From contig CAVPLT010000001.1 in assembly GCA_963706325.1 (NCBI GenBank), forward strand, positions 864,001 through 928,000: a stretch of 64,000 nt of DNA, written 5' to 3'. The stretch comes from an uncultured Nitrospiraceae bacterium (GTDB lineage: Bacteria; Nitrospirota; Nitrospiria; Nitrospirales; Nitrospiraceae). Every line of letters begins with the position of its first letter. Position 1 is the stretch's first letter. A program made the position numbers. Below are positions 21,001-33,000 of this stretch, piece after piece.

Positions 21001-24000
21001 ACGGGTCAGCCAGTCCACTCGAGCACGACGATTTCAGGCGTGCAATTCACACGAATGGGAATGACCGACCAGCCTAGGCCGCGGTTGACGTACAGGCGGT
21101 GGTTGTCCTTGCTGTAGAGTCCATTGGTCCGGCCGTGACAGCCTGGCGGCAGCCAGAATGTCGGGACGTAGGGAATGCGCCATTGACCGGCATGGCTGTG
21201 CCCGCAGAGGGTGAGATCGACATGGTGGCGAGCCGTCAGCTGATCCAGGATGTTGGGTGCATGGGCCAGCACCAGCGTGAACCGCCCAGGTTGCGGCGAA
21301 GGAATACACCGGAGATCGGCGCGGTGAAGTGAAGGGTCGTCGAGCCCCACGATTGCCAACTCGCCCGTCTTCATGGGAAGAAACGTGACTTGATTGACCA
21401 GGAGTACCACCTTGCGGCGGTCGAAGTGTTCGGCGAATTCATCGATCCGCACCCCACTGTAGTGGTCGTGGTTGCCGAGGGTGACGAACACCGGAGCCAG
21501 ACGTCGCAACTCTGTCAAAAAACGAAGGGTGTGCGGGAGGCCGCTCCGAACGTTCAGCAGATCGCCCGTAATAAAGATCCAATCAGGCGCCAGTTCGGCC
21601 ACTTGGCGAACGATGGCGCGATGTCGTGGTCGATAGCGATCCAAATGCAGGTCGCTCAGATGCACGGCGCGACGTCCGGCCAGCGGGGCATGGACGAGAG
21701 GAACGCGCGTAATGCTTGGGGTGGATAGCCCGAGTTCAATGCCGGGCATGAGATTGAACAGATGGTGGAAGGGGCGACTCAACCAGTGGCCGACCCAAAC
21801 CCGCGCCAGTTCCTGCCACCGAATCAGCGTGGCGATCATTCCATGACCCGATTCAAGCGGGCTCTGTCGGCGGTGGTTGCGCGATACCCTTGATCGTACA
21901 GCTTGCCCATGCCGGTCATCAGCGATTCCATGCCTTTGGCATTATGCAGCGTATCGAATTTCGAAATGAGCGCGAGGAGATGGGCAGTGGATCCCAACGA
22001 GGGTTCAGACGACAGATCGAGGGCGATGAGGATGTCTCGAAGTTCACGGTTGTTATATACGGCATTGTCATCGCCATCACCCACCAGGGCGAACTCATAA
22101 AAGGTCAGGCTGAGAGACAACAGCGATTGGGTGCGCTGAAAATCAGTTCGGACGGCATCAATTCCTTCGGGATACCGTGAGCGGCAGTCCGATGCCTGTT
22201 GCTCCGATGATTCTGCCACACCCCAGGGTGATTCGGCCTGCCCAGTCCAGGCGATGCGCTGCACTGCAGGAGGAGCCGGCTTTTGCCGTTGTTGTTTGTA
22301 AAACCAGTTCATGCACTGGCTCGCGATGGCAAAGGCCCGTTTGTCCGTCTCGGCCTGTCGCTGGATATGTTGGGTGAAGCGACTGAAGATATCGATGGCG
22401 GTCAGTTGGGGGGCAGCCATCGGTGAAGGGGCCAAGGTAGCGGTGACCGAACAAAATACTACCCCGGCAGCAAGATACCTATGGATGGATTTCATTCGCA
22501 TCGGTTTAGTTCTGGACTCCGCTGAGGTACCGTAGAGCCTCTATCGAGTATAACACGACTGGTGTCCCACTGTCGGCAATGTCACCCTCACCCATGATAA
22601 GGAATGCGCATGCCAACCCCGCCCTGGCTCGATGACACCTCCCCCTACCTGACTGCGGCAGTTCCCGCGATCGGCGGCCGGATTCGCAGTTCACCGGAAG
22701 ATTTTCGTGTTGAGGAACGACCGCTCTACTTGCCCTGTGGCGAAGGCGAACACCTGTATATTCGGGTGACCAAGCGCGGTCTGTCCACTCCCGATCTGCT
22801 TCTCCGACTCTCTTCGCAGCTCCATGTCAGAGCGCAATCTATCGGCGTGGCCGGGCTGAAGGACGCCCAAGCCGTCACGACGCAGATGATTTCCTTGCAG
22901 GGGGTGAAGGCAGAGGCGGTAGCGGCCTTGTCTACCGACGAGCGTTTGCTGGCTCTGGACATATTGGGACGTCATCGCAACCGCCTCCGGAAGGGACACC
23001 ATGCCGGCAATCATTTCCGGCTGGTGATACGGGATGTCAGAGAGGGTGCGGAGGCGCACGTGAGACAGGTGTTCGATGAGTTACTGCGCCGGGGCGTGCC
23101 GAACTATTTCGGGCCTCAGCGACAAGGGAGGTCGGGAACGAATTTTCAATTGGGCGCCGAGTTGTTGCAGGATGCCGCGCGCCGCAACAAGATGAGCCGT
23201 GCCAAGCGTATCTGGTTCATGAACGCCTATCAATCTCACGTGTTCAATCAGATCGTGGCCAAACGGATCGCGAGCCTGGATCGCGTGTTGCTGGGTGACT
23301 GGGCCATGAAGATGGACAATGGGGCCTGTTTTCCCGTGGAACAACCCGAGGTGGAACAGCCGCGCGCGGACCGGTTTGAGATCAGCCCCACTGGGCCCCT
23401 CTTTGGTTCACGTGCACCGTGGGCCACGGGGTTCGCGGGGGAGATTGAACGGGCGGTGGTGGCTGACCTCGGAAGCACCCCGGAGTTATTGTCCCAGGCG
23501 GGGACCGAATGCGGATTCAGGGGTGAACGACGGGCGCTTAGAATCCGTCTCAATGAGCTCACCTGGTCGCTTGAAGGCTCTGTGTTGACTCTGGCCTTTT
23601 GGCTGCCCCCTGGGTCCTACGCTACCAGTGTGCTCCGGGAAGTGGTGAAGGCAAATTCCTAGCAGGATGCTGAAAAAGTCAGCCATCTGCGGGCTCGCCT
23701 CGTTCAGACCCTCAACGTAAAGCCAGAGTATACTCTTCAGGTCTTCACTCGCTGCGACCTAGCTGAACGGCCTTAGTAATCATCTGCGTGGCCACTCATG
23801 TGAAATTTTGAATCTTCTGACGATTACTTGAACCGCAAAACGCCTTTTCTCCACCAGGTGGGCTCTACGGATCATTTTTTCTTCCAAATGGTAGAATCTA
23901 CATAGTGCAACTCATCGCTTCCGGGCGCGTTTCTTTCCGAGGGGAAATTCACTTGAGGTTTATTTATGACAGGATCGCAGGAAACGGTCTTTCTGCAGGG

Positions 24001-30000: not shown

Positions 30001-33000
30001 ACCGGCGTCGCATTGGTGCGTACCTTGGCTACAGAATTCGGTTCCTTGCCTCGAATGCAGGTGCGTCATGTTGGATATGGAGCCGGCACGGCCGATCCGG
30101 CTCAGTGGCCGAACGTGTTACGAGTCTTTGTCGGCGACGCAGCGGACAGGGAGGTCGGTTCAGTGGAGACGATCGTGGAACTTCAGACGAACATCGACGA
30201 CCTCAACCCGCAAGTCTACGAGACCGTGTTCGAGCGGGTGTTTGCGGCCGGCGCCGTGGATGTCACGCTCGCGCCCGTGATGATGAAAAAGGGTCGACCC
30301 GGCAATGTGTTGTCCGTACTGGCGCCTCGCGAGAAGGCCGAGGCCGTGTTAGCGGTGTTGTTCGCCGATACGACGGCATTGGGCATTCGGACCCAGGAGG
30401 TGCAGCGACGGGTCTTGCCGCGTCGGTTCACCTCGGTCCAAGTGGAGGGGCACGATGTTCGCATCAAATTGGCGGACCAGGAGCCGGGGCGCGTCAAGGC
30501 GTTACCTGAATACGAAGATTGCCGACGCATTGCGGAACAAAGCGGGCGTCCGGTGAAGGATATTCTCGAGACGGCGATGCGGATATATCGTCAGTCGCAA
30601 GACAAACGGCGAAGGGTCAAAGTGAGCAAGTGAAAGTCGCGACTGTCGTCGTCTCCGTGTTCCTGCGCCCTTCCCTCTCACGAGGCCTCCGGTGACAATC
30701 CTCTTCTATGCGGGATTGTTTCTGGCCTCGGTCATCATCACCCTCGCGGGATGCCATCTCTTCACGAATGGAATCGAATGGCTGGGGAAGCGACTGAACA
30801 TTTCCGAGGGCGCGGTAGGGAGTGTGTTTGCGGCGGTGGGGACGACTCTGCCGGAGACTTCAATACCGATCATCGCGATTTTTTTCGGGGCCGGTCGCGA
30901 GCAGGCGGAAGTCGGGTTAGGAGCGATACTCGGGGCGCCGTTTATGCTCAGCACGCTGGTCTTGCCGATTCTGGCGTTCCTGCTGTTGCTCTATGCCAGA
31001 ATTGGGAAACGGACCGCGACCTTCAAGCTCAACTATGGCGACGTGCGGGTCGATATCATATTTTTTCTCATCGCGTATGTCCTGGCGTTAACCTGTGCTT
31101 TCAGTCCCTCGCGTCTGCTTCATGCAGTCGTTGCGATCGCCCTGATCGGCCTCTACGTGTACTATATGAAACTCAAATTCTCGGCGGAGGATGAGGAATC
31201 CGAGGGGGGTGGTGCACTCGAGCCGTTGCTGTTTGCGCGCAGGTCGCCTCGTCCGACATATGTCGTGATCGCGGCGCAAGGTATAGTCGGACTGTTGGGG
31301 TTGGTCGGAGGAGCGCACCTGTTCGTGACTGCGGCGAATTCCATTTCAACGGAAATGCAAGTCTCGCCGCTGATCCTCGCATTACTGATCGCGCCCTTGG
31401 CTACCGAGTTGCCGGAAATGTCCAATAGCTTTCTCTGGCTCTATCGCAAGAAGGATCGGTTGGCTGTCGGTAATGTCACCGGCGCTATGGTCTTTCAGGG
31501 CATGATTCCCGTGTCGGTCGGATTGCTTGGTACCGAATGGGTGCTGGGAACAACGGCGGTGGCGACCATGGTCCTGGCCGTATTCGCTATGGGGATGAAT
31601 TTGCTGCAAGTGCTATGGTCCGGTCAGTGGCGCCCCTGGTTGCTGAGCGCCAGCGCCATCCTGTACCTTGGGTACACACTGTTTCTGTACACACATGGCT
31701 CATAAACGTCCGACGAGTCCGCAACGCCCCGTTTTGGGTCTCACCATGGGAGATCCCGCCGGAATCGGACCGGAGGTGATTGCCAAGGCATTGGCCGATA
31801 AGGCGTTGGCGCGCATGTGCTGCCCGGTGGTTGTGGGTTCCCGCGCCGTCATGGAACGAACGATCGCATCCATGCAACTGCCGCTGCAAGTGGTGGACTT
31901 CGATCCGGCGAACATCGCCCGACTGAAAGGTGGGCAGGTCGCGGTCGTAGATGCTTTGAAAAGTCCGCTGCCAAGATTTCGCATGGGTGTGGCGGCGGAT
32001 GTGACAGGAGCCGCCTCCATTGACTTCATTAAGGCTGCGGTCCGGCTTGCGCAGGCGGGCAGTCTGGCGGGAATCGTGACGGCGCCCATCAATAAAGAAG
32101 CCATGAACATGGCCGGTTACCACTACCCGGGGCATACGGAGTTGCTGGCAGATCTGACTCAGACCAAGGAATTCGGGATGATGATTGTCGGCGGGCCGCT
32201 GAAGATCATGTTCACGACTACGCACGTCGCGATCAATGCACTGTCCTCGATGTTGACCACGGAGCGTATTACGAAGGCTATTCGTCTCGCTCATCTTGGG
32301 CTGACGCGTTACTTCGGCATTGCGCGACCGAAAATCGGTGTGGCGGCACTGAACCCCCATGCGGGCGAACACGGGTTATTCGGCAATGAAGAGGCGACCA
32401 GCATCGTCCCGGCCGTGCAACAAGCCCGTGCCGCCGGAATCAAGGCCAGTGATCCGTTGCCGGCCGATACCCTATTTGGGAAGGCGGCCAGAGGCGCCTA
32501 CGATGGCGTCGTGGCGATGTACCATGATCAGGGACTGATCCCCTTGAAGTTGCTCGCCTTCGGGACCTGTGTGAATCTGACGGTGGGGCTGCCGATCATC
32601 CGGACGTCGGTCGATCACGGAACCGCCTACGATATTGCCGGTAAAGGGTTGGCCGAACACGGGAGTCTACTGGAGGCCGTCAAGGTCGCGGCCAGGTTGG
32701 CCCAATCTTGGTCGCCTACCCAGGGCCAGTCTCGGTAAATAAGAGGGAGTACGCATTGCCATGTCAGAAAAGACCGCTTCGATCATCGATCAGCAGGTGA
32801 AGGAATTGGACGCGATTGCGAAGCGAACGGTCCAAGATTTTAATACCGTCTTGGGCGCAGAACGCATGGGGCAATGGAAGATCCGCACAGTGACATTGCT
32901 CCAGCAACTTGCGGGAAAGAAGGAGGCGGATGAACTGGCGAGCAAGGATCCCGGCCCCGCCTTCACCAACGATCTGATCGAGGAATTCACCGACGAAGTG

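Follow-up and report, generated by a model that had tools for sequence, protein, structure and literature searches.

We report that an uncultured Nitrospiraceae bacterium carries, as two separate but overlapping genes, a nickel-pincer ornithine cyclodeaminase and a probable arginine dihydrolase. In the explanation that we consider the most credible, these genes form an operon of their own, and the nearby larB and larC genes belong to a second, separate unit that is kept independently of the pair. These nitrifiers would gain a route, assembled from known enzymes, that yields three ammonia from arginine, and a gene labelled 'DDAH' or 'amidinotransferase' in most Nitrospirales would receive a new label. 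The persistence of larB without the cyclodeaminase led to a second likely client of the cofactor, the GSU2086 family.

Organization of the locus

The features of the locus are listed in Table 1, with positions counted along the window, that is, the whole 64-kb stretch of DNA analysed. A first-pass annotation had described the two halves of cyanobacterial ArgZ/AgrE as overlapping separate genes in reversed order, and the reading frames agree with this description. The hydrolase most probably starts at the ATG at 25207, which gives both its length and the ATGA overlap. The zinc-ribbon gene that follows is kept beside gpsA even in genomes without the enzyme pair. A search of positions 22000-32000 for guanidine and NiCo riboswitches returned a single match, at chance level, and a terminator scan of the locus gave 6 sites where 6.4 were expected.

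Table 1. Features of the locus and their positions in the window.
Feature	Position	Strand	Remarks
Ornithine cyclodeaminase, nickel-pincer (NPAD) type, TIGR00300	23966..25210	+	414 aa; corresponds to the C-terminal part of ArgZ/AgrE
Stand-alone guanidino-modifying enzyme, probable arginine dihydrolase	25207..26007	+	266 aa; ATGA overlap with the cyclodeaminase stop
Zinc-ribbon membrane protein gene	26027..26383	-	Convergent with the pair; ends its sense transcript
Sigma-70 consensus promoter (predicted), TTGACA-18-TATAAT	26496..26525	+	12/12 match; 8 nt 5' of gpsA
gpsA, NAD(P)H glycerol-3-phosphate dehydrogenase	26534..27559	+	Outside the arginine route
larB, nickel-pincer cofactor carboxylase/hydrolase	27556..28338	+	Probable GTG start overlapping the gpsA stop
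Conserved hypothetical protein, probably exported	28678..29250	-	Between larB and larC; open frame without a match in NCBIfam/Pfam
larC, nickel insertase	29422..30633	+	Followed by a CaCA-family antiporter and pdxA

Identity of the two enzymes

The cyclodeaminase (g00983) scores 459.8 against TIGR00300 in a profile search, above the cut-off of 410.8, as previously annotated. Its domain layout has three parts (PF04455, PF21571, and PF21570), and its nearest solved structure is 3c2q (E 6e-95), which a supplement table lists as a Ni ornithine cyclodeaminase (PMC13524815). The genome that encodes it also contains larB, larC, and larE.

Among solved structures, the hydrolase is best matched by the N-domain of ArgZ/AgrE (E 2e-72), with 118 identities in 265 alignment columns by hand count; the annotated identity of about 45% and the top PDB matches are thus reproduced. 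The terminal cysteine was said to align with the catalytic cysteine of ArgZ, and it does so in this alignment, in which C260, H164, E116, and N69 (the N of the DMVFTAN motif) are paired with ArgZ residues. We take these to be the Cys260/His164/Glu116 triad and a dihydrolase-type Asn69. The variant sites in the PDB sequences of ArgZ (Asn>Ser in 6juz, Cys>Ser in 6jv1) correspond to Asn69 and Cys260. All twelve positions compared, which were chosen from the active-site residues of ArgZ, are conserved in 83 of 84 Nitrospirales/Nitrospinia loci, the remaining one being truncated, and in 45/45 other loci. The stand-alone hydrolase is likely an arginine dihydrolase.

The arginine dihydrolase model NF052232 is not reached (284.9 against a cut-off of 450), but this cut-off is narrow, because a true fused ArgZ that passes NF052231 also misses it at 425.7. 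In the fusion test with NF052231, the required score of at least 1025 is set against 280.8 and 377.6 for the two reading frames here. A second guanidino enzyme was sought in the genome and none was found. Arginase was considered as a source of ornithine and rejected: the sole arginase-family match is an agmatinase, located beside a pyruvoyl arginine decarboxylase-like gene.

Distribution and ancestry of the pair

The cyclodeaminase was detected in 111 of the 151 Nitrospirales genomes surveyed and was not seen in 40, about a quarter. In every one of the 111, it lies directly 5' of the hydrolase, with a gap of at most 259 nt, and the two genes are unfused, so the adjacency is stronger than the 13 of 13 mapped loci claimed earlier. 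larB was found in every cyclodeaminase-bearing genome, both in Nitrospirales (111/111) and among planctomycetes (23/23). In seven genomes of the order, the hydrolase is present and the cyclodeaminase is not; five of these belong to one genus that lacks larB/larE, and no ornithine-using neighbor of the hydrolase was seen in these seven.

The enzyme pair is not peculiar to Nitrospirales, and other phyla have it too. Among 45 non-Nitrospira hydrolase loci, a TIGR00300 gene lies upstream in 21, with putA adjoining in two of those, and neither ornithine-using partner stands alongside in 22; of five genomes tested from the partnerless loci, four encode the cyclodeaminase elsewhere. In a quick tree, fused ArgZ does not come out as the sister group of the Nitrospirales hydrolases, and the proposal that the genes were split from cyanobacterial ArgZ is therefore unsupported. 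The quick tree gives no direction between fusion and fission, and we claim none.

The arginine-to-glutamate route

The cyclodeaminase and the hydrolase would constitute a translationally coupled two-gene operon. By analogy with ArgZ, Cys260, His164, and Glu116 of the hydrolase would attack arginine and remove both guanidino nitrogens, giving ornithine, CO2, and 2 NH3. The cyclodeaminase, whose family is assigned and whose activity is predicted, would then use its nickel-pincer cofactor to convert ornithine into proline and NH3, and PutA, for which a gene was found elsewhere in the genome, would convert proline into glutamate. Such a route would be an unfused form of the cyanobacterial AgrE-PutA route, serving nitrogen recycling or scavenging. 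We regard this operon, standing apart from the lar block, as probable. The first-pass annotation attributed an ammonium-freeing arginine-ornithine-proline-glutamate route to Nitrospirales; residues, gene context, and PutA support it well, whereas the 21 loci in other groups and the 40 genomes without a detected cyclodeaminase qualify its attribution to the order. Proline dehydrogenase is present in five of five further genomes of the order, and a crude motif scan found no cyanophycin-synthetase-like protein.

The lar block and the pair

The annotated larB, larC, and larE all exceed their cut-offs (larB 284.9 over 175; larC 194.5 over 90 and 140.1 over 50; larE 315.4 over 150), and larE (C7:44498-45319) and a PutA-like protein (on C6) lie elsewhere, as had been noted. 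The lar block would be an older housekeeping unit that has its own promoter and comprises gpsA-larB-(hypothetical)-larC-(antiporter)-pdxA; among 66 gpsA loci, partly drawn from the same genomes, 51 have a TATAAT within 110 nt 5' of the gene. Together with larE, the block would make the nickel-pincer cofactor for several clients: the cyclodeaminase, in a few genomes a LarA-like protein, and most probably the GSU2086-family protein. LarA was rejected as the reason for the persistence of larB/larE, as it occurs in just 12/151 genomes.

Alternative explanations

The hydrolase could instead be a DDAH or another guanidino enzyme that acts on methyl-arginines, citrulline, or agmatine, a doubt already raised in the first-pass annotation. 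Database labels mostly read 'dimethylarginine dimethylaminohydrolase', a review names Rv2323c a DDAH (PMC11008464), and the score against NF045659, the Mtb-type dimethylargininase model of the Rv2323c family, is 247.4 (cut-off 300), close to the 284.9 for NF052232. However, the classical DDAH models NF045658 and NF045660 reach just 45.4 and 75.9, against cut-offs of 450 and 340, and separate DDAH-like paralogues (25-30% identity) coexist in the same genomes, all five of them with Asp, Leu, and Lys at positions 69, 163, and 166, whereas Asn69 is kept here. The gene context also indicates ornithine as the product: in Collimonas and Herbaspirillum, an ornithine aminotransferase gene lies upstream of the family member, in P0150 the two are fused, and PMC4569260 states that Rv2323c is required for making proline from arginine. 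We therefore consider a DDAH-like activity improbable. It is somewhat less improbable, though still unlikely, that the main role of the pair is to make proline (or an osmolyte) from arginine by an alternative route rather than ammonium-releasing catabolism. The chemistry gives proline in both cases, putA is unlinked to the pair in Nitrospirales, and no gene for an arginine transporter was noted next to it; yet putA adjoins it in the two non-Nitrospirales loci, and cyanobacterial AgrE is described as supplying PutA (PMC8262935). This alternative differs from a catabolic route in physiology alone, with the same enzyme functions.

The pair and larB/larC had also been proposed to form one core operon, uniting arginine catabolism with dedicated cofactor genes. 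In its favor, larB lies 2.3-5.3 kb from the pair in 55 of the 58 genomes of family f1 that have both genes; this linkage, within 8 kb, had earlier been seen in the present genome only. But linkage was found in 0/53 genomes of other families (28 with the genes far apart on one contig, 25 with them on different contigs), and two minus-strand genes, a predicted sigma-70 promoter, and gpsA intervene here. The pair and larB/larC are thus neither uninterrupted and co-oriented nor conserved in their linkage. Furthermore, G137 and G139 retain larB/larC although nothing of the pair stands between their truD and zinc-ribbon genes, and larB (144/151) and larE (143/151) outnumber the cyclodeaminase (111/151), with larB retained in 33 genomes without it. 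A single operon is highly improbable, and two units remain our preferred reading.

A candidate second client of the cofactor

According to PMC13524815, the nickel-pincer cofactor is made by many prokaryotes that have no LarA, and further classes of client enzymes are still to be discovered. In Nitrospirales, larB/larE occur in about 95% of the order versus 8% for LarA, and the GSU2086 family fills most of this gap. In the present genome, its gene follows gmhA at C1:432886-433836, outside the window. The family model has a cyclodeaminase/deoxyhypusine-synthase fold in structure comparison (Z 20.5 to AgrE, 19.4 to 3c2q, and 19.4 to DHS). Pairwise BLAST between the cyclodeaminase and GSU2086 is not significant (E 0.086), whereas profile and structure comparisons are, which suggests that the protein is a distant relative of the cofactor-binding domain of the cyclodeaminase.

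All 121 gmhA-positive genomes contain either the GSU2086-family protein or HldD, and just one contains both. HldD occupies the slot after gmhA in two genomes, and one HldD-using genus lacks larB/larC/larE. larB accompanies the GSU2086-family protein in 120/120 genomes of the order and in 82/88 of Planctomycetota; of five larB-negative and perhaps incomplete planctomycete genomes tested, three also showed no larC. The 39 genes listed in a published Tn-seq study of Geobacter include the GSU2086-family gene, hldE, gmhA, and nikMN, together with three that are probably lar genes. Among 94 long homologues, many of them longer Bacillales forms, there are fusions to HldE, GmhA-type SIS, and HAD domains and none to Lar proteins; an ESM Atlas search returned unnamed clusters only. 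As a separate observation, a DUF362 protein is also present in the genome.

On balance, we lean toward the view that larB/larC are kept across Nitrospirales mainly for the GSU2086-family protein, as a nickel-pincer epimerase that does the job of HldD for the LPS core. The proposed reaction would epimerize the heptose at C6, turning the D,D- into the L,D-form, with either ADP-heptose or a heptose phosphate from an earlier step as the substrate. TIGR02197 has no match in the genome (best blastp to an HldD, 27.7%), which makes it less likely that the protein is HldD and does not lower the chance that it works like HldD. An epimerase of this kind would explain the electrode-growth defect common to lar-like, nickel-import, and heptose genes in Geobacter sulfurreducens, in which GSU0140, GSU0141, and GSU0536 are the candidates for larB, larC, and larE. 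If this is true, the GSU2086 proteins make up a new family of nickel-pincer enzymes through which outer-membrane synthesis is linked to nickel in several phyla, and a nickel-dependent variant exists beside the textbook pathway to ADP-heptose.

Comparison with known systems

ArgZ (Sll1336, Synechocystis) and AgrE (Alr4995, Anabaena) share with the present pair both domains, all examined site residues, and the downstream PutA route; here, the halves are two unfused genes in reverse order, outside a sister relationship to fused ArgZ in the quick tree, and no cyanophycin synthetase was found in the crude motif scan. The stand-alone ornithine cyclodeaminase of Methanococcus maripaludis (3c2q, UniProt Q6LXX7) belongs to the same TIGR00300 family and was reported to use nickel-pincer adenine dinucleotide (Desguin 2025, cited in PMC13524815), whereas the Nitrospiraceae copy is coupled to a guanidino hydrolase. 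Rv2323c of the mycobacterial roc cluster is, as described in PMC4569260, likewise a stand-alone guanidino enzyme with an ornithine-using gene alongside; its partner is an ornithine aminotransferase, and the hydrolase here misses the NF045659 cut-off. Finally, HldD (RfaD/GmhD, ADP-L-glycero-D-manno-heptose 6-epimerase, TIGR02197) and the GSU2086 family share the slot after gmhA and are nearly mutually exclusive, but they are unrelated families, and the GSU2086 family, with its cyclodeaminase/deoxyhypusine-synthase fold, falls outside TIGR02197.

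Genes of the locus

The plus strand carries, in order, truD, a 414-aa ORF and a 266-aa ORF and, further on, gpsA, larB, larC, an antiporter gene and pdxA, with minus-strand genes for a zinc-ribbon protein between the 266-aa ORF and gpsA and for a hypothetical protein between larB and larC. The 414-aa ORF matches the C-terminal parts of AgrE and ArgZ as well as 3c2q, which a supplement listing of PMC13524815 gives as a nickel ornithine cyclodeaminase. The 266-aa ORF (the hydrolase) matches the ArgZ/AgrE N-domain with E 1e-72, compared with 1e-14 for DDAH structures, and reaches none of the curated cut-offs. 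Elsewhere in the same genome lie genes for LarE, a PutA-like protein, a LarA-like protein and agmatinase.

Features of the locus and of related loci (plain positions count within the window; G, C and L denote genomes, contigs and loci, G000 being the genome under study)
Feature	Location	Strand	Remark
414-aa cyclodeaminase ORF	23966-25210	+	TIGR00300 459.8 > 410.8
266-aa hydrolase ORF	25207-26007	+	ATGA overlap with 414-aa ORF
Sigma-70 consensus, 12/12, upstream of gpsA	26496-26525 (gpsA ATG at 26534)		ends 8 nt before gpsA ATG
gmhA-like gene, then GSU2086-family gene	G000:C1:432240-433836 (L156)		outside the window; model score 447.9 > 250
LarA-like protein	G000:C1:1079276-1080772 (L054)		in glycosyltransferase/polysaccharide cluster; below all LarA subfamily cut-offs
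Agmatinase, pyruvoyl arginine decarboxylase-like and deoxyhypusine-synthase-like genes, close together	G000:C1:110334-115599 (L055 and beyond)		probable polyamine cluster
DUF362 protein	G000:C2:125372-126442 (L158)		twin-arginine-like N-terminus; possibly another cofactor client
Hydrolase, genus g13	L031:6765-7595; L032:6442-7287; L033:6338-7195		between MFS-like gene and PAS/two-component genes; cyclodeaminase and lar genes absent
Hydrolase remnant, G111	L036:6332-6466		short; single-contig genome, cyclodeaminase gone
Ornithine aminotransferase fused to, or upstream of, hydrolase family	L123:4727-6837; L155:4652-6855		also P0150, P0161
hldD directly after gmhA	L188:3046-4716 (G133); L189:4626-6238 (G027)		usual slot of GSU2086; different genera

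Spread of the pair

Among 151 genomes drawn evenly from the order, which was identified as Nitrospirales from what its close relatives are called, 127 had hydrolase matches, and 118 were counted as orthologues (at least 57% identity; two are fragments); the nine left out had DDAH-like paralogues (25-30% identity) as their listed matches. The cyclodeaminase was found in 111 of the 151, directly upstream of the hydrolase in every one (two counted from pieces). Since kin are not independent, such counts show conservation and not separate events. The pair is not restricted to Nitrospirales: among the best 80 matches, a cyclodeaminase stands upstream in 21 of 45 loci outside the order (one a partial match only), in Planctomycetota, Verrucomicrobiota, Chloroflexota, Binatia and others, and putA adjoins 2 of these 21. 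In a quick tree, the Nitrospirales hydrolases and one Nitrospinia protein form a group with 98% support that is distant from the DDAH paralogues, and fused ArgZ is not its sister.

The lar genes as a separate unit

The first-pass annotation had placed the pair and larB/larC in one operon. This does not hold: larB/larC form a separate unit with its own predicted promoter. In family f1, 55 of 58 genomes have them no more than 8 kb from the cyclodeaminase, a linkage shown by none of 53 genomes outside that family, and the order gpsA-larB-larC-pdxA recurs in all four families, including loci that lack the pair. The position of the promoter consensus suggests that the gpsA transcript may be leaderless in this genus. 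Across the 151 genomes, larB is present in 144, larE in 143 and LarA in 12, and 33 carry larB without the cyclodeaminase.

Predicted activity of the hydrolase

Of the loci compared, 83 of 84 from Nitrospirales/Nitrospinia and 45 of 45 from other groups retain all twelve site positions matched to ArgZ residues with presumed catalytic roles; three of these positions differ in DDAH-like paralogues. The hydrolase has both residues that are substituted in deposited ArgZ variants, and two unrelated enzymes that consume ornithine are found beside members of the family or fused to them. AgrE converts arginine to proline, CO2 and three ammonium, feeding PutA (PMC8262935); Rv2323c, required for proline formation from arginine (PMC4569260), is named a DDAH in a review (PMC11008464). 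We infer that the predicted activity is arginine dihydrolase; the missed cut-offs and the seven Nitrospirales genomes with hydrolase but no cyclodeaminase count against it. In five proteins (P0126, P0127, P0128, P0133, P0137), the part of the cyclodeaminase fused ahead of the hydrolase is limited to one or two copies of its small N-terminal domain, possibly a regulatory form.

A candidate second client of the nickel-pincer cofactor

The GSU2086 family was reached from a weak NCBIfam cross-match, and its member in the studied genome is a candidate nickel-pincer-dependent stand-in for HldD. The family shares an HDxE stretch with the Rossmann domain of the cyclodeaminase (hhalign probability 87.7, E 3.4e-6), and its structure model (pLDDT 88.8) has the same fold, with Z of 20.5 to AgrE and 19.4 to both 3c2q and deoxyhypusine synthase (DHS), the last being the top Foldseek rank. 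Of the 151 Nitrospirales genomes, 120 carry the family; larB is present in all 120, which include 28 of the 33 that are larB-positive and cyclodeaminase-negative. Among 141 Planctomycetota genomes, larB is present in 82 of 88 with GSU2086 and 35 of 53 without, and neighbours of GSU2086 include hldE, gmhA, lpxL and lpxK.

The hldD searches scored only 13-14 candidates per genome; among these, HldD was found in 11 Nitrospirales genomes, 10 of them without GSU2086, and the 121 gmhA-matching genomes divide into 114 with GSU2086 and 8 with HldD, one having both and none neither. No gmhA match was found in any of the 21 genomes lacking both, although joint loss is expected, as gmhA lies next to GSU2086. 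In genus g13, hldD is present in 7/7 genomes; larB, larE, GSU2086 and the cyclodeaminase were not found in these seven, nor larC in 5/5 tested, a pattern that counts as one event. In Planctomycetota, on 13-14 scored candidates per genome, 7 of 88 GSU2086-positive genomes have hldD, compared with 28 of the 53 GSU2086-negative ones. G042 (L190) has a gmhA slot with neither gene, and hldD elsewhere.

In G. sulfurreducens, the 39 genes with an electrode defect in Tn-seq include hldE, GSU2086, gmhA and nikMN, together with a PurE-like gene (GSU0140, 749 bp), the gene next to it (GSU0141, 1166 bp) and a gene labelled adenosine-nucleotide alpha-hydrolase (GSU0536, 809 bp). Each of them is enriched on fumarate as well (+1.0 to +1.9); the table carries the label hldD on no gene (PMC5585712). 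By label, length and gene order, GSU0140, GSU0141 and GSU0536 would correspond to larB, larC and larE. Against a second client, insertions in GSU2086 may be polar, and nickel import serves hydrogenases too.

Other observations also weigh against a second client. Five larB-positive Nitrospirales genomes, one 73% complete, have neither the cyclodeaminase nor GSU2086; G123 carries both GSU2086 and hldD; and six planctomycete genomes have GSU2086 without larB, with larC also absent in three of five tested. NAD is used by DHS-fold relatives, and no cofactor-binding residue was pinpointed in the family. Bacillales, which lack LPS, carry long forms. LarA homologues are plentiful in Planctomycetota, so larB there has other uses, and one is known in a Geobacter species (PMC11770544). 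Intact-looking larB and larC stand in G052, G072, G100 and G138 (L172-L175), where no cyclodeaminase, GSU2086 or LarA was found, which may reflect either recent client loss or a third client. Proteins of about 660 aa (P0271-P0332), many from Paenibacillus/Cohnella and possibly tandem-domain forms, outscore single-domain members.

Relation to known systems

Literature searches, mostly at record level, on Nitrospira with the pair enzymes and on nickel-pincer cyclodeaminase returned no published description of the unfused pair in Nitrospira, and those on GSU2086 and pincer plus heptose no published link between GSU2086 and a nickel-pincer enzyme of heptose synthesis; Desguin 2025 (as cited in PMC13524815), Burnat 2019 and Zhang 2018 may already report unfused pairs or the GSU2086 family. 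The pair is genuine and conserved, an unfused version of a known pathway, and the lar genes point to a new and testable nickel-pincer enzyme in heptose synthesis, with the GSU2086 family as the candidate.
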